Below are positions 1-6,707 of a stretch of 6,707 nt of DNA, piece by piece. Below the pieces are notes generated by a model, which was not told the DNA's origin, made no database searches, and worked only from the letters and a program-made list of their open reading frames with translations. This DNA comes from a virus (lineage: Duplodnaviria; Heunggongvirae; Uroviricota; Caudoviricetes), in the IMG/VR virus record IMGVR_UViG_2737471848_000011; one strand, 5' to 3'. The translations under genes were made by a program, and so were the position numbers. The first letter of the stretch is position 1. The number at the start of each line of letters is the position of its first letter.

Positions 1-156
1 AGGACGGATAACCACATCGTAGCCGTTCCGTCATCTGCCTGGCTGCACGGCAGGGGGACAGCCATACTCGCCATCGTCATTTGTGTGCCCTTGCTGGTGG
101 TCTTTAACTGTGGGTCAGCCACCAGCCGCCCGTAAGCCGCTATCTGTGCTGTCATG
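1..156 (-). CDS. Hypothetical protein, N-terminal 52 codons only (gene runs off the left edge); possible OB-fold / SSB-like N-terminus
   Basis: ATG at 156..154 preceded by GGAGAGGTGG at a 4-nt spacer; open to the window edge. The ATG overlaps the TGA stop of the upstream 81-aa ORF (ATGA). N-terminus MTAQIAAYGRLVADPQLKTTSKGTQMTMASMAV loosely matches the first strands of SSB-type OB folds (G-x-L-x-x-D-P). The fold assignment is inference from pattern only. Confidence 0.4.
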
Positions 157-397
157 ATTCCACCTCTCCGGTTTTAACGTTGATGGTTGTTACCTGTTCC
201 GCTTCGGCAATCTCCCGTTCTGTCAGCGTGGCAAAGTTTGCAGCTGCCGTTGTCATGAATGCGCTAACCAGTTCGGGATGTGCTTTCGCATATCCTTCCC
301 CGGCGTTGCGGTCGATGATTTTTATCGACACCCTTAACCAGTGTTCCGTCAAATCAAGGGCGTGCGATTGTGATTTTTTTGTGTGCTTCGCTGTCAT
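152..397 (-). CDS. Hypothetical 81-aa protein downstream of the origin
   Basis: ORF in the six-frame track; ATG at 397..395 with only a weak Shine-Dalgarno; stop TGA overlaps the start of the next leftward gene (ATGA), suggesting translational coupling. No family recognised. Confidence 0.45.
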   Translation of the reverse strand: MTAKHTKKSQSHALDLTEHWLRVSIKIIDRNAGEGYAKAHPELVSAFMTTAAANFATLTEREIAEAEQVTTINVKTGEVES

Positions 398-443
398 AGG
401 CTTTATCTCACAGCAGTAAATTAAAATTTTTGCGTTTCAACCC

Positions 444-671
444 TTCACCTGTTCACCTTTTGATATTTTATCTTTTAATTCATAATGTTAAGGGGTGAAC
501 AGTTTCACAAAAACTATTCACCAACTGTTCACCACTGTTCACCCTTGAAGCTCAATAAACAATCAAAAAGGTGAACAGTGAATAGTTTGGTGAACAGTTC
601 ATAAATAACTGTTCACCATATAATATACTGATATAAAAGATATTTATGACAGGGTGAACAGTGATGAACAG
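444..671. repeat. Iteron array, putative replication origin (ori/crr-like), with AT-rich stretch
   Basis: Perfect octamer TGTTCACC or its complement GGTGAACA at 450-457, 494-501, 526-533, 536-543, 570-577, 589-596, 610-617, 653-660; degenerate copies at 444-449, 515-522, 577-584, 663-670; both orientations. AT-rich block at about 621-650. Sits directly 3' of the alpha-like gene. The octamer is the one I recall as the P4 alpha-binding type I iteron. Confidence 0.8.
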
Positions 672-684
672 TTATTCCATAAGT

Positions 685-2499
685 TTAATTTTTGCCATCG
701 TCATTTGTGACCGATGCACATGAGGGCATCCAGTCTTCTGAATCCTCTGTCAGTATCACGTTTGAACGCAAGCCATGCTTCGTTTTCCGTTTCATATACT
801 CCCTGCCGTATTCCGCCATTGCCCCTGGCATATCCTTACCGAAGCGTGTCAGTGTTACGGGCTTACCGAATCCGTGTGCCCTCATATACGCCAGATAGGC
901 GTGATAGAGATACCTGCGCGGGCTGAACGGAATAATTTCAGCATTACCCACTAACAGGCCATCGCACATTACCGACGACATGAGATAGCCGCAGAAGTCC
1001 ACCAGCGAATCGCCCTCGCGTTTTATCACCAGGGCTTCTTCTGATTTCTGCTGCTCATATAGCAGGCGTTTAGCTTCGTCCTGGTCAGAAAAGCGTGTAA
1101 GCAGGTGGCGAATCACTACCGCCAGCTCTCCTTCTATTTTTTCAGCCAGCATAGGGTCACGTTCGTTCTCCGGTACAACTTCCGAAAAATTGAATATTAC
1201 CCGACGACGTGATATCCCACCGCTGCGGTCACTGAATGACATGGCGTTATTGTTCACCGCCAGCACGACCGCCTGAATGCGTGTTGAGTAGGGGGCTTTA
1301 TGTTTCGGGTCGATTGCCACCTTATCACCGCCTGTAATGGCCTTAATCCCTGCACCATCACCAGCGTAACGGGTCATATCCGGCATGATAATCAGCGAAA
1401 AGCCAACCACTAACGCACGTTCCCTGGCATCTTCCAGCGCCTTCATGCTTGCCGATACCGTGTTGGCCTTACCCGCCAGCATAGTGCAAATCTCCGCCAT
1501 TACGCTTTTACCGCTTCCACCCGGCCCCGTTACCTCAAGAAATAACTGCCAGTCGTACCGATTCGCCAGCACCATGAATAACGCCGCCAGTACGCGATCT
1601 GCCTTGCGGTCATTCTCAGCCACCGAACGGCGCAACCACTTCCAGAAATTCGGCGCATGTGTTGCCAGCGTTTCCCCCTCTGCTGGTGGGCTGAAAGGTA
1701 ATTCACTGGCAATTAACAACCAGTCGTTTTTGTTATGCTCCCGAAAATTACCAGTTCTGGTATCAAATACCCCGTTACTGAATCCAATCAGGTTACGGGC
1801 TGTATTCCCCATTACGGGCAAACTTAACTTCATGGTATCGACCGCCGATTTGATGGCGTTCTGCGAATAGCTGATTTCCGCATCAATAAAAATCTGCGCC
1901 ATAGTCCGCTGTAACTCTTTATCCTGTACCGGCTCCCATACAACACCGTTGTAGTGGTGAACGGTGTCAGAATCCGCATTGATTGCCAGTTCACCGCCAT
2001 AATGTGCCAGGAGAACTTCGCCGCGCTGGCTTGCTCCCATCTGGTTAAGTGCCAGTGGTGTCGCGCTGTCTTCTGTTTTTTTCTTTGCCGGAAACCGGAT
2101 AATCAGTCCGTCATCAATGTTTTTACGCTCACGGGCAAGGTATTCACGCCAGTTCTCACACTTCTGGCTGTGCATGCCATCAGGGTAATAATTCGCATTC
2201 TGTATACTTGCCGCCGCCAGCTTCTGACCAATTGCCTTAACCATTACAGGATCTAACTGTCCGGCTCTGAATATGCGCGCGGATGTGCGCCCATCAGGCA
2301 CTATTTGCAGATTTCCGATCTCTTTCAGTTGTTCATCAGCCAGCACAACAGGTGGCTCATTATCTCCAGCCATACGCGCATCGTGTTCCTGCCATTGTTT
2401 CGCGTGTGCCCAGGCATCACTACCCGCGAAAATAATTACCTCTGTGTCTTTGTGTTTTATTCCGCGTGGCTGTTTTTTTACGTTCGGTGCCAGTTTCAT
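685..2499 (-). CDS. P4 alpha-like replication protein (putative primase-associated SF3/D5-type helicase), 604 aa
   Basis: Long ORF with Walker A GPGGSGKS at aa 325-332, followed by a hydrophobic stretch then acidic residues (LVVGFSLIIMPDM) and an N-rich motif (VLAVNNNAM), as in SF3 helicases of phage/plasmid primases. Start ATG at 2499..2497 overlaps the stop of the upstream 80-aa gene (ATGA) and is preceded by a G6A6 tract. The iteron origin lies immediately downstream. Confidence 0.88.
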   Translation of the reverse strand: MKLAPNVKKQPRGIKHKDTEVIIFAGSDAWAHAKQWQEHDARMAGDNEPPVVLADEQLKEIGNLQIVPDGRTSARIFRAGQLDPVMVKAIGQKLAAASIQNANYYPDGMHSQKCENWREYLARERKNIDDGLIIRFPAKKKTEDSATPLALNQMGASQRGEVLLAHYGGELAINADSDTVHHYNGVVWEPVQDKELQRTMAQIFIDAEISYSQNAIKSAVDTMKLSLPVMGNTARNLIGFSNGVFDTRTGNFREHNKNDWLLIASELPFSPPAEGETLATHAPNFWKWLRRSVAENDRKADRVLAALFMVLANRYDWQLFLEVTGPGGSGKSVMAEICTMLAGKANTVSASMKALEDARERALVVGFSLIIMPDMTRYAGDGAGIKAITGGDKVAIDPKHKAPYSTRIQAVVLAVNNNAMSFSDRSGGISRRRVIFNFSEVVPENERDPMLAEKIEGELAVVIRHLLTRFSDQDEAKRLLYEQQKSEEALVIKREGDSLVDFCGYLMSSVMCDGLLVGNAEIIPFSPRRYLYHAYLAYMRAHGFGKPVTLTRFGKDMPGAMAEYGREYMKRKTKHGLRSNVILTEDSEDWMPSCASVTNDDGKN

Positions 2500-2738
2500 T
2501 TTTTCCCCCCTGCAACCAGCATTTCACGGATTTTGCGGATATAGCTTGCTGCACGTTTTTGATTTACGGCTTTATAATGGTCCACCAGCGTAAAATCACG
2601 GCGGTAGGTGATATTGCCTGGCGTAACGTGACGAATAACCACTCGTCCCCCACGTCTGGTGTCGCGGTAAATATCTCCGAGTCTGATTTCAGGCCGAGAG
2701 AGACCGCTGGCAGTAAAGCCAGAATTTTTCTTTTTCAT
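2496..2738 (-). CDS. Hypothetical small basic protein (80 aa), translationally coupled to the replication gene
   Basis: ATG at 2738..2736 preceded by AGGAAA; ends GGG GGG AAA AAA TGA with the TGA overlapping the alpha-like ATG. Basic composition (many R/K). This position is typical of small accessory proteins upstream of primases in P4-like elements; the family is not confirmed. Confidence 0.55.
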   Translation of the reverse strand: MKKKNSGFTASGLSRPEIRLGDIYRDTRRGGRVVIRHVTPGNITYRRDFTLVDHYKAVNQKRAASYIRKIREMLVAGGKK

Positions 2739-2768: not shown

Positions 2769-2942
2769 TTATTTCCGCACGAATACAGAGTTCAGAAAAA
2801 ATTCAGGAGAACCAACAATCTCATTACTTTTCAGTCGGCATTGTGATTTCACTTTCCCTTTATCCAGGTAAACCAGTACGCGTCCGGTGAAATCATCTGG
2901 CACATTAAGCACTACGGGTACATGCGCTTCATGATTATGCAT
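2769..2942 (-). CDS. Putative small protein, 57 aa (MHNHEAHVPVVLNVPDDFTGRVLVYLDKGKVKSQCRLKSNEIVGSPEFFLNSVFVRK), not in the ORF track
   Basis: Hand-translated. ATG at 2942..2940 preceded by GGAGGA at about 8 nt; the start overlaps the TAA stop of the 197-aa gene with the same ATGCATAA junction seen at the 74-aa/197-aa boundary; stop TAA at 2771..2769. Fills an otherwise empty 196-bp gap in the operon. Confidence 0.45.
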   Translation of the reverse strand: MHNHEAHVPVVLNVPDDFTGRVLVYLDKGKVKSQCRLKSNEIVGSPEFFLNSVFVRK

Positions 2943-3528
2943 GGCTTACATCCTCCGTGAATTTTCTTCTGTAACGCGTCTCTGCCACATATTCCGCATA
3001 GTCCGACGCAATACTAAGAATCATTTCACCCTCTGACTTGTAGCCACTGGTATTGATAAGAAAATATGCAGCTTTCATCATGTCAGCAACGCTCAACAAT
3101 GCGCCCGCTGCATCTTCCGGTGCGCCATCAAATTCCCGTTTCAGGGAATTAAAACGATCATCACGCATGTTTACCCCCCCCTGAATGACCTGATAACCGC
3201 AACTGGTCAGCAATTCGATAAATTCCGGCAGTGTGCCGAAACAGCAATCATCACGCAGACGTTCGCGGGATACTTCAACGCCGTTTTCGTAGTGACTCAC
3301 CATGCGTCCGGTAAAATGCAGATCATCATCGTGATGGCACGTTGACGGCTTAATCAGTCGCGCACGTTCCGCCAGTTCCAGCAATGCTTCAACGCTTCCG
3401 GCAATTGCACCATCCGGCAGGTGATAATTACTTACCACGCGTCCATTCTCCACGTTGACCAGTAGCTGCCCGGAAAATATCTCGTCAAACTGAATGCTGT
3501 TAAGGTCAGAAATTGACAGGTTATGCAT
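2935..3528 (-). CDS. Hypothetical protein Z, 197 aa (unknown function; Cys/His-rich patches CHHDDD and DDCCFG)
   Basis: Start chosen at ATG 3528..3526 (MHNLSISDL...) because AGGAGG lies 6 nt upstream; the track ORF begins 6 codons earlier with no SD. The start overlaps the stop of the upstream 74-aa gene (ATGCATAA). Contains a G8 homopolymer at 3174-3181. Confidence 0.7.
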   Translation of the reverse strand: MHNLSISDLNSIQFDEIFSGQLLVNVENGRVVSNYHLPDGAIAGSVEALLELAERARLIKPSTCHHDDDLHFTGRMVSHYENGVEVSRERLRDDCCFGTLPEFIELLTSCGYQVIQGGVNMRDDRFNSLKREFDGAPEDAAGALLSVADMMKAAYFLINTSGYKSEGEMILSIASDYAEYVAETRYRRKFTEDVSHA

Positions 3529-3745
3529 GGTGCACCTCCTGCACATCAGCCATGATAATTTTTCCGGCCTTATCCAGTGCCTGATCGGCTTTTAGCTGCA
3601 CAAATGCTAAATAATGGAAGATGCATTCTGATTCTCTGGCTGCGTGTTTATGCGCCACACCAGCGATAGCAGAAATCTCAATAAGTGAATCCATCAGCGT
3701 TTTGATAGCGTCTACCGCTGCATCAGGCCATGTTGCATTACACAT
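3521..3745 (-). CDS. Hypothetical protein Y, 74 aa
   Basis: The track ORF starts at a GTG (3787); the internal ATG at 3745..3743 has GGGGGTGG upstream and overlaps the stop of gene X by 8 nt (ATGTGTAA), so I call the shorter form. Stop TAA at 3523..3521 overlaps the Z start. Confidence 0.5.
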   Translation of the reverse strand: MCNATWPDAAVDAIKTLMDSLIEISAIAGVAHKHAARESECIFHYLAFVQLKADQALDKAGKIIMADVQEVHHA

Positions 3746-3935
3746 GTTCCACCCCCTGACGAATACGGGCGGCGAATACAGCAACACAACCTGACGGGCA
3801 ACGGCTACGCGCTTCGCGTTCCGTCCAGGCGGTTACGTGGATGATTTGAGATTCTCCGGCACTCAGTGCCAGAAAACGCCACACAAAGGCCGTTTGTGTG
3901 TGTACAAGGTGTGGTATATGATTTACAGCAACCAT
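3738..3935 (-). CDS. Hypothetical protein X, 65 aa, first gene of the leftward operon
   Basis: ATG at 3935..3933 with AGGAG 5 nt upstream; the track ORF extends upstream to 4010 without an SD. Lies downstream of a predicted leftward sigma70 promoter. Confidence 0.5.
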   Translation of the reverse strand: MVAVNHIPHLVHTQTAFVWRFLALSAGESQIIHVTAWTEREARSRCPSGCVAVFAARIRQGVEHV

Positions 3936-3963
3936 AACGGCTCCTAGTTTACGTTGTTGGTTA

Positions 3964-4008
3964 GAAGCCCTGCGAGTGGTAACGACACTTGCGGGGCTTT
4001 GTCTTTTC
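3964..4008 (+). other. Plus-strand-specific hairpin followed by a U-rich tract (terminator-like), within the leader region of the leftward operon
   Basis: Arms AGCCCTGCGAGT (3966-3977) and ACTTGCGGGGCT (3987-3998) pair over 12 bp with two G-U wobbles on the plus-strand RNA, loop 9 nt, then TTGTCTTTTC. On the minus-strand RNA the two wobbles become C-A mismatches, so the structure is asymmetric. Confidence 0.35.
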
Positions 4009-4026
4009 ATCGATTACCTTGATAAA

Positions 4027-4129: not shown

Positions 4130-4309
4130 ATGGCAACAAAAGCAGTTAATGCAAAATCCAAAAAGCTTGAGGCTCGAGTACCACACGCAATAGCTGATGC
4201 TGTAGAAAATTTAAAGGAAGATGGCGAAAGTACAGGGCAATTTATCGTTTCGGCACTTGAAGGCGAGATCAAACGCCGCCAGCGTCGCAAGGCCAAAGAG
4301 CAGGAATAG
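4130..4309 (+). CDS. Small ribbon-helix-helix-like DNA-binding protein (59 aa), putative repressor of the switch
   Basis: ATG at 4130 with GAGG about 9 nt upstream; the longer track ORF (from 3989) has no SD and overlaps the promoter region. MATKAVNAKSKKLEARVPHAIADAVENLKEDGESTGQFIVSALEGEIKRRQRRKAKEQE fits a beta-strand (KKLEARV), helix A, G-x-S/T turn, helix B pattern with a basic tail. It is the only plus-strand gene and is followed by an intrinsic terminator. Confidence 0.6.
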   Translation: MATKAVNAKSKKLEARVPHAIADAVENLKEDGESTGQFIVSALEGEIKRRQRRKAKEQE

Positions 4310-4397
4310 CCCACCAGCAAGCCAGCACACTGATCACATTGCCCACCAGCCAACAAATCGCTATGATGTTTGGGCTTATGTTTAGTGTTTTCCCATT

Positions 4398-4431
4398 GGC
4401 GACCTCTGATCCGGGTCGCCTTTGTTTTGTC
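4398..4431 (+). terminator. Rho-independent terminator of the RHH gene
   Basis: GGCGACC (4398-4404) / GGTCGCC (4414-4420) 7-bp GC-rich stem, 9-nt loop, followed by TTTGTTTTGTC. The reverse complement has no U-tract, so it is plus-strand specific. Confidence 0.6.
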
Positions 4432-5008
4432 ACTGAATGCGGTTGCCAAAGTAAAACTCAGGCTGATATTCACGTATCAGCCTTTTTTCTTCTTCCTCCA
4501 GCTCACGCTTTTTGCGCTTACATGCCTGTAGCTCCCTCCCCTTCTGACTAGCACTTAACTGATATTGCTCTTTACGGCGAGAAAAGTCCTGTAATGCGCC
4601 CCACGGGATACCATAAGCCCCCGTTTTTCTGATTCCTGGTATCACATTCCTGAATACCCAGTTACTGAAACGATGGGCGAATGTGCCTTGCGTCGTTGCT
4701 TTGCGGCTACGGGCTATTAGTTTGTAGAAACCTGACTCAGAGATAATGCTCATATTCTGATTTCCTCCTGGGGTGTAAGTTAAATTTACTCCCTTTTCAT
4801 CATCATCAAGCATCTGCAACGCCGTACGCGAATTGGTCAGTTCCAGCGCAGCGCAGACATCCTTTGCAACAAACCACGGATCGCCGTTCAGATACACCAC
4901 GCGAACGTTCACACTATCAAAGCGCAGAACGACCAGATCACGAAAATCACAGATTTTTTTTACATGACGTGCGTCACCCTTGCCCGTCACGGCAATATTT
5001 TTATTCAT
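4430..5008 (-). CDS. BRO-N domain protein (phage antirepressor-like), 192 aa
   Basis: Sequence DPWFVAKDVCAALELTNSRTALQMLDDDEKG...IISESGFYKLIARSRKATTQGTFAHRFSNWVFRNVIPGIRKTGAYG matches the conserved Bro-N pattern (PWFVAKDV, DEDEK, SGLY-LI-SRK, W-VLP-IRKTG-Y). C-terminal about 50 aa is charged and coiled-coil-like. ATG at 5008..5006 with GAGGT upstream; contains an A8 tract at codons 16-19. Confidence 0.8.
   Translation of the reverse strand: MNKNIAVTGKGDARHVKKICDFRDLVVLRFDSVNVRVVYLNGDPWFVAKDVCAALELTNSRTALQMLDDDEKGVNLTYTPGGNQNMSIISESGFYKLIARSRKATTQGTFAHRFSNWVFRNVIPGIRKTGAYGIPWGALQDFSRRKEQYQLSASQKGRELQACKRKKRELEEEEKRLIREYQPEFYFGNRIQ
4459..4490 (+). terminator. Second hairpin plus T6 tract (backup terminator) embedded in the 3' end of the BRO-N coding region
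   Basis: GGCTGATA (4461-4468) / TATCAGCC (4475-4482) perfect 8-bp stem, 6-nt loop, then TTTTTT (4483-4488). Confidence 0.4.
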
Positions 5009-5067: not shown

Positions 5068-5292
5068 TTAGTGGGGATTGGCTTGTTCTCGTTGTTTATC
5101 TAACCATGCTTCTACATCTCTACGGTGCCAGGTATGTCGTCGTCCAATTCTGAACGGCTGAGGAAAACCATTATTCTCATCTTTCCAGAAATTGATGAAT
5201 GCACTCATTGCTCCATATCGCAAGATTTTCATTACGTCTTTAGTAAATAAAATATCTTCATTGGTATTCATTTGCTGAACCTCCTCAACCAT
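5068..5292 (-). CDS. alpA: AlpA/Vis-like small DNA-binding regulator (excisionase/activator family), 74 aa
   Basis: Small ORF immediately downstream of, and overlapping, the integrase (ATGGTTGA junction). Helix-turn-helix-like core ILFTKDVMKILRYGAMSAFINFWKDENNGFPQPFRIGRRHTWHRRDVEAWL resembles AlpA-family proteins paired with P4-type integrases. Confidence 0.75.
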   Translation of the reverse strand: MVEEVQQMNTNEDILFTKDVMKILRYGAMSAFINFWKDENNGFPQPFRIGRRHTWHRRDVEAWLDKQREQANPH

Positions 5293-6523
5293 TTACTACT
5301 CTTAAACCTTTCATACCACCGGATCTATTAATTACCCCTTTTCTCGCATCATCAAAAAAATCACCGACCCATTGCATCATGATCTTACGCTGTTCTAGAT
5401 AAATAGTTCTATTATAAATATCTCTTATTTTATCACCACTTTTATGCGCCAATGCAGCCTCGATTACATCGGGGTTAAATCCCTCCTCATTTAAAAGCGT
5501 ACTCCACATTGAACGAAAACCATGTAACGTTACAATCCCTTTGAACTTACTGGCAGCAATTGGGGTCTTGATAGTATTCCTCCCCATAGGCGCATCTTTT
5601 GTTCTGGAGGAAAAAAACACATAACGCCCTCTTTTTATTTCCTGCATTGTTCTGAGGATACTAATAGCCTGTGATGACAAGGGAACAACATGTTCACGAT
5701 GGCATTTCATTTTATGCGCGGGGATAATCCACAAGCCAGAATCAAAATCAATCTCTGACCACTCTGCTTTAATCGCCTCACCTGGCCTGACCATTGTCAA
5801 TATCTGGAATAAAAGTGCATTATGAGCTATTTGATAGGTATGAGGCACACTATCCCACCAGCTCAGAAATTCAGGCAATCTTTCAACAGGTAGTGCTGCT
5901 AATGATTTATTTTTCTTTCCTGTGAATGCAGTCTTTATCTTAAGTAATGGATTTGCTTTCAATGCTCCACAATTTACAGCATAATTCATAATTTCATTTA
6001 ATCTTGATATTAATTTTTTTTGCAACGCATTCTTATCGGATACGGCATCCAGAGCATTAATAGCTACTGGTGCTGTAATTTTTTCTATACTGTACTTACC
6101 AAAGAAAGGAACAAGATATTTGTATACTTCATATTCGATATTATACAGCGTAGGTTTCCGCAATTCAGATCCCTTTTTAAAAGCGAACCATGCATTAGCA
6201 ACAGCTTCAAATGTCTGTAGATTTTTTAGTGACATCTCAATTTTACGATTTTTCTTCTCCGTCACTGGATCAACTCCACGTGCAATCATTCGCCGAAGTT
6301 CATCACGTACTTCCCGTGCTTCCGCGAGTGAGAATTCAGGAAAACGTCCTATCGTGTATGTCTGCCGTTTCTTCGTTATCGGATGGCTATAACGGAAACG
6401 CCACACTTTCCCACCGGCTTTACTCACATTCAGCAATAAACCGAACCCATCATAAACGGCATAGTCCTTTTCACGTGGTTTCATCCCCTTAACTTCAGTC
6501 ACGGTTAATGGCTTTACCGACAT
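5285..6523 (-). CDS. int: Tyrosine recombinase, P4-family integrase, 412 aa
   Basis: N-terminus MSVKPLTVTEVKGMKPREKDYAVYDGFGLLLNVSKAGGKVWRFRY matches the P4-type integrase arm-binding domain; C-terminal catalytic signatures HGFRSMWSTLLNE (HxxR) and a tyrosine region DIYNRTIYLEQR. ATG at 6523..6521 with GAGGG upstream. Confidence 0.93.
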   Translation of the reverse strand: MSVKPLTVTEVKGMKPREKDYAVYDGFGLLLNVSKAGGKVWRFRYSHPITKKRQTYTIGRFPEFSLAEAREVRDELRRMIARGVDPVTEKKNRKIEMSLKNLQTFEAVANAWFAFKKGSELRKPTLYNIEYEVYKYLVPFFGKYSIEKITAPVAINALDAVSDKNALQKKLISRLNEIMNYAVNCGALKANPLLKIKTAFTGKKNKSLAALPVERLPEFLSWWDSVPHTYQIAHNALLFQILTMVRPGEAIKAEWSEIDFDSGLWIIPAHKMKCHREHVVPLSSQAISILRTMQEIKRGRYVFFSSRTKDAPMGRNTIKTPIAASKFKGIVTLHGFRSMWSTLLNEEGFNPDVIEAALAHKSGDKIRDIYNRTIYLEQRKIMMQWVGDFFDDARKGVINRSGGMKGLRVVNG

Positions 6524-6707
6524 CTATCGCCCTCATTTTTTAGTCCGTCATGTAGTCCATTCAAGCCAATAACAAGCGATAAACTAACTCATTATCAAGC
6601 AAAGAGAGGAAACTCATAAAATCACAACTCATTGAAAAGACTATGAAACGACACCAGAACATACAAACAGGTAAGAAATGTACCCTACATCCAAAATGAC
6701 GCAATCC

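Follow-up and report, generated by a model that had tools for sequence, protein, structure and literature searches.

The DNA considered here is a stretch of 6,707 nucleotides (hereafter the window, meaning the stretch at its full length) from a virus of the class Caudoviricetes, IMG/VR record IMGVR_UViG_2737471848_000011, and it is identical (100%) to stretches of several complete Escherichia coli genomes. It carries the gene rep, also labelled 'pri-rep', which encodes a replication protein of 604 amino acids (aa), and 3' of this gene stands an array of short repeats, or iterons. Both belong to an island of about 10.4 kb. We compared this replicon with that of satellite P4, with that of EcCICFT073, the prototype Gram-negative phage-inducible chromosomal island (PICI; Fillol-Salom et al., 2018, PMC6092414), and with that of vB_KppS-Ant (LR881103), a 16.5-kb element from an induced lysate that was deposited as a phage and in which the relevant stretch is 9938–11949. 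The positions of all features are collected in Table 1.

The ATPase core of Rep holds a Walker A motif, GPGGSGKS, at aa 325–332 (nt 1504–1527), which is identical in the alpha protein of P4, and it matches the primase-helicase structure 7OLA (E 2.6e-10). Towards the C-terminus, aa 496–592 match PDB 1KA8, the C-terminal domain of P4 alpha (E 1.6e-23), and aa 495–590 match Pfam Pox_D5 (E 9.2e-13). When compared with alpha itself, Rep aa 125–599 align with residues 304–776 at 50% identity (E 3e-163); the D5_N part is 36% identical to alpha 313–486, and aa 311–485 are 64% identical to alpha 487–660. TIGR01613 gives 97 bits, under the family cutoff of 108.7. An earlier note on this DNA, made from its letters alone, had taken the protein to be helicase-type and alpha-like and had proposed alignment with P4 alpha and D5 profiles as a check, naming a lack of alpha/D5 homology as the result that would count against it; the alignment has now been run and the homology was found. 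That note had also seen no obvious EGYATA-type primase motif in the first 320 residues of the protein, and the absence extends further. P4 alpha has EGYATA at residue 214, CPVC at 35 and CNQC at 57, together with a Zn_Ribbon_Prim domain (30–66) and a Toprim_3 domain (210–299), whereas a motif check of Rep found neither EGYATA nor a CxxC pair, and a Pfam domain scan of the proteins of the window, of EcCICFT073 and of vB_KppS-Ant found neither domain. Judged from sequence, Rep is the helicase and origin-binding half of alpha joined to a different N-terminus. The protein is WP_000761774.1, annotated as an identical protein in several unrelated E. coli lineages, and its RefSeq name is 'DNA primase family protein'; since no primase domain is detectable in the island proteins called by this name or 'Pri-Rep', the annotation reflects association only. 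A literature search for 'Pri-Rep' together with 'helicase' gave no match.

The gap between the 3' end of rep and the next open reading frame (ORF), one of 81 aa, spans 398–684 (287 bp) and is 67.6% A+T, against 54.1% for the window. Here the octamer TGTTCACC occurs in perfect copies at 450, 526, 536 and 610 on the plus strand and at 494, 570, 589 and 653 on the minus strand, accompanied by one-mismatch copies at 515 (TATTCACC) and 663 (TGTTCATC, minus strand) and by two-mismatch copies at 442 and 577. The earlier count of at least eight perfect and about four degenerate copies in both orientations is thus exact, and a conserved AC stands 5' of the octamer in most of them, giving the extended form (A)AC-TGTTCACC. 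The window holds nine perfect copies in all, eight of them within 450–660, where 0.23 per window would be expected, and nine were never reached in 200 dinucleotide-preserving shuffles (0/200). The ninth copy lies alone at 1251–1258, inside the part of rep that codes for the ATPase core, and could be a chance occurrence or an autoregulatory site for Rep. A+T-rich DNA is present as the note had said, in two blocks, both bracketed by convergent iterons, and not in the one block it had described. In sequence the octamer agrees exactly with the 'ori type 1 repeat' annotated in the P4 record NC_001609, and it is found in both orientations in P4 and here, so that its description as a P4-type iteron holds. 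When the literature was searched in full text for the octamer, only primer sequences of no relation to it came up.

The whole island is collinear with EcCICFT073, 10 of its 15 proteins being homologous and in the same order. Both elements run from int and alpA through a divergent ylcI, an icd-like ORF, small ORFs and a DUF4222 gene to pri-rep, and then through an iteron gap of about 288 bp and a small ORF to ssb, the gene of a single-stranded DNA-binding protein (SSB), and the late genes. The layout that had been called PICI-like, on the ground that int and alpA lie upstream of rep and are co-oriented with it, is therefore confirmed. Rep is 51% identical to Pri-Rep of EcCICFT073 and has the same domain set, the 81-aa ORF shares 87% identity with its positional counterpart there, and the SSB genes share 71%. 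EcCICFT073 carries iterons of its own, TGTCTACC, also 8 bp long and in both orientations, in the corresponding gap of 288 bp that separates pri-rep from hyp-ssb; they differ from TGTTCACC at two positions. The two islands further differ in their integration sites, roxA(ycfD)-phoQ for EcCICFT073 and a prophage terminase gene here, and in their late zones, which consist of capsid and decoration genes in EcCICFT073 and of a ClpP-protease/capsid fusion gene here. The origin of Gram-negative PICIs is located immediately 3' of the initiator gene, with two iteron sets flanking an A+T-rich region, and EcCICFT073's pri-rep-ori stretch maintains a temperature-sensitive plasmid, maintenance being abolished by deletion of either rep or ori (PMC6092414). 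The present island has the structural traits of this class: int at one end, a co-oriented alpA-type regulator, a near-uniform gene direction, pri-rep followed on its 3' side by an array whose iteron sets flank A+T-rich DNA, a size in the range of about 10–20 kb, and no lysis or tail genes.

The insertion site places the island more closely. The island interrupts gpA, the gene for the large subunit of the terminase in a lambdoid prophage, and both halves of gpA share the strand of int and rep; this configuration is present in two unrelated strains, 2014C-4423 and O157:H7 F3113, where the island measures about 10.4 kb (L001, about 8282–18688). The N-terminal half of gpA (L001 7151–8281) ends in RIASFWM and a stop codon, and the C-terminal half (18689–19693) resumes with SSWMEGP about 10.4 kb away. 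By translating the terminase fragments, the core common to both was found to be about 7 nt, roughly CATCCAA, and a search of the island ends for attachment (att) sites as exact direct repeats of at least 12 nt gave none. In helper-embedded PICIs a prophage late gene is likewise interrupted by a co-oriented island, and the same four zones can be told apart, namely integration (int, alpA), Bro (Bro-N), replication (primase, SSB) and late; 491 such cases have been mapped, and a single integrase clade has been described for the class (Tommasini, Mageeney and Williams, 2023, PMC10111431). Given its insertion in a prophage terminase gene, the island belongs to this already described class. Our own literature search for satellites inside terminase genes gave no match.

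A further comparison is provided by vB_KppS-Ant, whose primase-family protein is 74% identical to Rep and whose primase-family gene is directly followed on its 3' side by eight perfect copies of TGTTCACC. The origin of vB_KppS-Ant is 80.6% identical to that of the window, and in this alignment 77% of the iteron columns are conserved versus 59% of the spacers (Fisher p 0.003). The window, vB_KppS-Ant and P4 share TGTTCACC and have binding domains that are 49–78% identical; the binding domain of EcCICFT073 is only 36% identical, and its octamer is a different one. The predicted DNA-binding domain and the iteron co-vary. vB_KppS-Ant differs from the present island in having terminase, portal, capsid and connector genes of its own, and it has the look of a capsid-forming PICI, not of a phage.

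We consider, with a probability of about 0.85, that the island is a Gram-negative PICI of the EcCICFT073 type which sits within a prophage terminase gene, and that the region is its replication zone. The array is read as its origin because it occupies the same gap as the proven ori of EcCICFT073, because domain and iteron co-vary, because the iterons are conserved, and because the arrangement occurs widely: an origin at least 90% identical is present in 594 of 5,426 complete E. coli genomes (about 11%), and a primase-family gene is its neighbour in 29 of the 30 records listed. By analogy with P4 alpha, EcCICFT073 and the Staphylococcus aureus pathogenicity islands (SaPIs), induction of the helper prophage would lead to AlpA-dependent transcription of the operon that extends from int and alpA to rep. 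The C-terminal domain of Rep would then bind the iterons, and Rep would assemble into hexamers, melt an A+T-rich block and load itself as the replicative SF3 helicase, while the SSB encoded by the island would coat the unwound DNA; in this way the excised island would replicate autonomously before being packaged. The primers would have to be supplied by the DnaG primase of the host, by the helper phage or by the N-terminal module of about 125 aa in Rep itself, and we regard recruitment of an external primase by Rep as fairly probable. In the Pri/Rep-ori replicons of SaPIs the initiator is likewise a self-loading helicase. SaPIs reside in a Gram-positive host and have Pri and Rep as separate proteins, and beyond the helicase class we know of no sequence relationship between their replicons and this one.

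Several points weigh against reading the region as the replication zone of a working PICI. No primase domain can be detected in Rep, and to that extent the replicon may not be self-sufficient; the positionally equivalent repeat cluster of P4, crr, is an auxiliary cis site and not a start site; a promoter and terminator scan of 100–800 found no sites around the origin; and a frameshifted small ORF, together with a late zone cut down to one capsid-protease gene, means that the island is possibly partly defective. The same scan found no counterpart of the P4 t-alpha terminator between rep and the iterons.

The N-terminal module occupies the place of the zinc ribbon and Toprim primase of P4 alpha. 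Searches of the module against Pfam (E ≤ 10) and, with a profile, against PDB sequences gave no credible match, nor did a comparison with the N-terminus of P4 alpha by hhalign, and HMMER, run exhaustively over 1.84 billion representatives, recovered only 81 relatives. Ten full-length relatives were scanned, and in all ten the module is N-terminal on a replicative-helicase protein, with four different helicase cores among them (D5_N/DUF5906/Pox_D5, DUF927, AAA_25 and VapE). Its AlphaFold2 model is a four-fold beta-alpha domain with a predicted local distance difference test (pLDDT) score of 80–92 in the core. The invariant residues are A4, P5, E20, I23, A25, G26, A29, P50, L53, L58, G80 and L94, and neither the Toprim Glu nor the DxD is among them; after strand 1 the module reads FAGSD, where alpha reads AEGYATA. 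Foldseek comparison with PDB and BFVD gave sub-threshold matches only, of which DnaG-type primase and Toprim structures are the best in PDB and are prominent among the top matches in the viral library. From the model it is possible that this is a degenerate Toprim-like module, and it could still make primers or dock the host DnaG.

The module also marks a discontinuity within rep. Rep aa 1–135 are 79% identical to Pri-Rep of EcCICFT073 and 41% to the vB_KppS-Ant protein; for aa 136–604 the figures are 36–55% and 78–93%, respectively. On these alignments there is a recombination boundary inside rep near aa 135, and the split identities, together with the four helicase cores carried by one kind of module, show domain shuffling among PICI initiators, in keeping with the 'allelic variants' of Pri-Rep to which Fillol-Salom et al. 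refer (PMC6092414). The earlier suggestion of a mosaic satellite is to be revised in this sense: the element as a whole is a standard Gram-negative PICI collinear with EcCICFT073, and the mosaicism is found at the level of domains, inside rep.

It could be argued that the module is an active but highly divergent primase and that the RefSeq name is literally correct. This proposal concerns a sub-step only and does not conflict with our reading of the region as a PICI replication zone. The module occupies the position of the alpha primase, it is fused to a replicative helicase core in every relative scanned, and its nearest structures, sub-threshold as they are, come from the DnaG and Toprim group; set against the absence of the Toprim residues from its invariant positions, primase activity in the module appears to us unlikely.

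A second alternative is that the replication module is an inactive relic in a decaying island, which is fixed in a defective prophage and no longer replicates. The signs of decay already named speak for this, as does the labelling of the terminase as a pseudogene. On the other hand rep has kept an intact reading frame, its protein recurs under the identical accession in unrelated lineages, eight iterons are perfect, and the breadth of the origin among E. coli genomes, at the identity given above, is hardly that of a relic; moreover, where a PICI is helper-embedded the terminase gene is expected to be split, and excision restores it (PMC10111431). We consider a relic to be quite improbable.

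The iteron cluster might also be an auxiliary or copy-control site like crr of P4, acting as an enhancer or by handcuffing of Rep, with the true origin elsewhere. Type 1 repeats in P4 (NC_001609) are found at ori (9310–9413) and at crr (4291–4590), and crr lies directly 3' of alpha (4636–6969, minus strand) with repeats in mixed orientation, like the array here, while ori is 4.5 kb away. It follows that the position of the iterons directly 3' of an alpha-like gene, which the earlier note had regarded as a non-P4 order, is not a departure from P4. Window 444–499, block 1 and iterons included, aligns with the P4 crr repeat at 87% over 54 nt, but the array aligns with P4 ori as well, at 85% over 72 nt, both alignments being far above shuffled controls, and the resemblance is not specific to crr. 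A specific homology of the array to crr was accordingly dropped as a candidate, the two P4 sites giving similar alignments that are largely driven by the iterons. Whereas P4 has a bipartite arrangement of ori and crr, this island has a single cis cluster: no second one exists in the window or in the remainder of the island, where the other perfect octamers are isolated singletons. The two iteron-flanked A+T-rich blocks have the published architecture of a PICI ori, and the equivalent segment of EcCICFT073 is necessary and, with rep, sufficient for replication. With this evidence a crr-like role, in place of that of the PICI origin, is very unlikely.

Lastly, the element would be a member of the P4-like satellite family, or a degenerate derivative of it, and the region a rearranged P4 replicon, but this is extremely improbable: the P4 octamer and origin-binding domain, a helicase 50% and an integrase 33% identical to those of P4 (the integrase being 22% identical to that of EcCICFT073) and an Icd/Kil-like ORF upstream are outweighed by the gene order and the 10 of 15 proteins shared with EcCICFT073, by the missing primase half of alpha, by the lack of C4 or isrK matches in Rfam, and by the limitation of P4 homologues among the island proteins (E ≤ 1e-3) to Int and Rep. 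The core set of P4-like satellites comprises int, psu, delta, sid, alpA, epsilon (ash) and alpha (de Sousa et al., 2023, PMC10085698). No homologues of psu, delta, sid or epsilon are present in the island, which is thereby outside the definition, and assignment to this class was rejected on gene content; apart from rep and the integrase, the element is unrelated to P4. Of a P4 alpha-type replicon it has the D5_N SF3 helicase and the C-terminal domain, with its predicted binding role, together with the TGTTCACC iterons, and it has neither the zinc ribbon and Toprim primase with EGYATA nor an ori with a distant crr. The Rfam scan, which covered the whole window at E ≤ 0.1, gave no match, and hence no P4 CI/C4 or isrK RNA is placed in the window. 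Immunity RNAs of the C4/isrK kind have been reported for some PICIs.

As a replicon, the region adds little to what is known, since its architecture, position and function have been established for EcCICFT073 and SaPIs and prophage-embedded PICIs have been described; it is an ordinary and widespread member of an experimentally characterised kind. What is of more interest is that one allelic class of PICI initiators has a DNA-recognition domain of the P4 alpha type and the exact P4 iteron. The shared iteron and domain tie the P4 and PICI families at the level of the replicon, more closely than the 'distant homology' of the literature. Because the octamer is that of P4 and the binding domain of Rep is homologous to that of alpha, this PICI family and the P4-like satellites could cross-activate or compete in a shared cell, and such cross-talk is testable. 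The conserved N-terminal module, for its part, is a small and defined target for asking how these satellites prime DNA synthesis. The joint proposal that the module is an unrecognised priming or primase-recruiting domain and that P4-like satellites and this PICI family cross-activate or compete at their origins is tentative and in our opinion rather doubtful; there would be a modest gain if the module proved to be a device of a new kind for priming or recruiting, or if P4 and PICI replicons do engage in cross-talk.

Table 1. Features of the window, with positions counted from its first letter; where a domain or module of Rep is listed, its residues are given with the name.
Feature	Position	Strand	Remarks
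81-aa ORF just past the origin	152..397	-	ORF; phrog_1231, E 8.5e-50; conserved downstream partner of the replication zone
Iteron array	442..670	both strands	12 copies of (A)AC-TGTTCACC, 8 perfect; predicted origin of replication
A+T-rich block 1	458..493		83% A+T; convergent iterons 450(+) and 494(-) on either side; candidate unwinding site
A+T-rich block 2	618..652		83% A+T; iteron 610(+) on one side, 653(-)/663(-) on the other; candidate unwinding site
rep ('pri-rep') gene	685..2499	-	ORF; 604 aa; alpha-like superfamily 3 (SF3) replication initiator/helicase, no recognisable primase domain
C-terminal origin-binding domain (predicted), aa 495–592	724..1017	-	PDB 1KA8 match; Pfam Pox_D5
SF3 helicase ATPase core, aa 324–432	1204..1530	-	Pfam DUF5906, E 6.6e-11
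D5_N domain, aa 161–290	1630..2019	-	Pfam PF08706, E 5.4e-13
N-terminal module of about 125 aa, aa 1–125	2125..2499	-	in place of P4 alpha zinc ribbon and Toprim primase
DUF4222 gene	2496..2738	-	ORF, Pfam; stop overlaps rep start; homologue in the same place in EcCICFT073
Small ORF	2769–2942		annotated as frameshifted pseudogene in matching genomes 2014C-4423 and O157:H7 F3113
203-aa ORF	2935–3546		continuous here and in O157:H7 F3113; two ORFs in the 2014C-4423 annotation
Icd-like ORF (P4 Kil/CI-region-like)	4010..3738	-	faces the divergent ylcI/ynfO gene
ylcI/ynfO gene	4130–4309		divergent; sole gene of the int-to-rep stretch off the minus strand, as in EcCICFT073
Bro-N gene	5008..4430	-	
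alpA-like helix-turn-helix (HTH) regulator/excisionase gene	5068..5292	-	weak Pfam HTH_17; phrog_66, E 1.7e-7; RefSeq HTH regulator
Tyrosine integrase gene, P4-int type	5285..6523	-	ORF, RefSeq; upstream end of the island, alpA-like gene downstream
Island/prophage junction	6688..6707	-	start of the terminase large-subunit (gpA) 5' fragment, running off the window

Besides rep, the island comprises int, alpA, Bro-N, small ORFs, ssb, a single capsid-protease gene and a further small ORF. The start codon of rep and the stop codon of the DUF4222 gene upstream of it overlap in the sequence ATGA, and the SSB gene follows the 81-aa ORF just beyond the window. The phrog_66 family, to which the alpA-like gene is assigned, is labelled 'excisionase and transcriptional regulator', and the Icd-like ORF that faces the divergent ylcI/ynfO gene is an arrangement common to the window and EcCICFT073. 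The late gene, a ClpP-like prohead protease/major capsid fusion (L001 9186–11075), lies outside the window and is 52% identical to the copy in the helper prophage (L001 3471–5450); it looks like a captured late gene and might redirect capsid assembly. The small-ORF region at 2769–3546 differs among strains, and two of its ORFs contain repeated phrog_340 segments.

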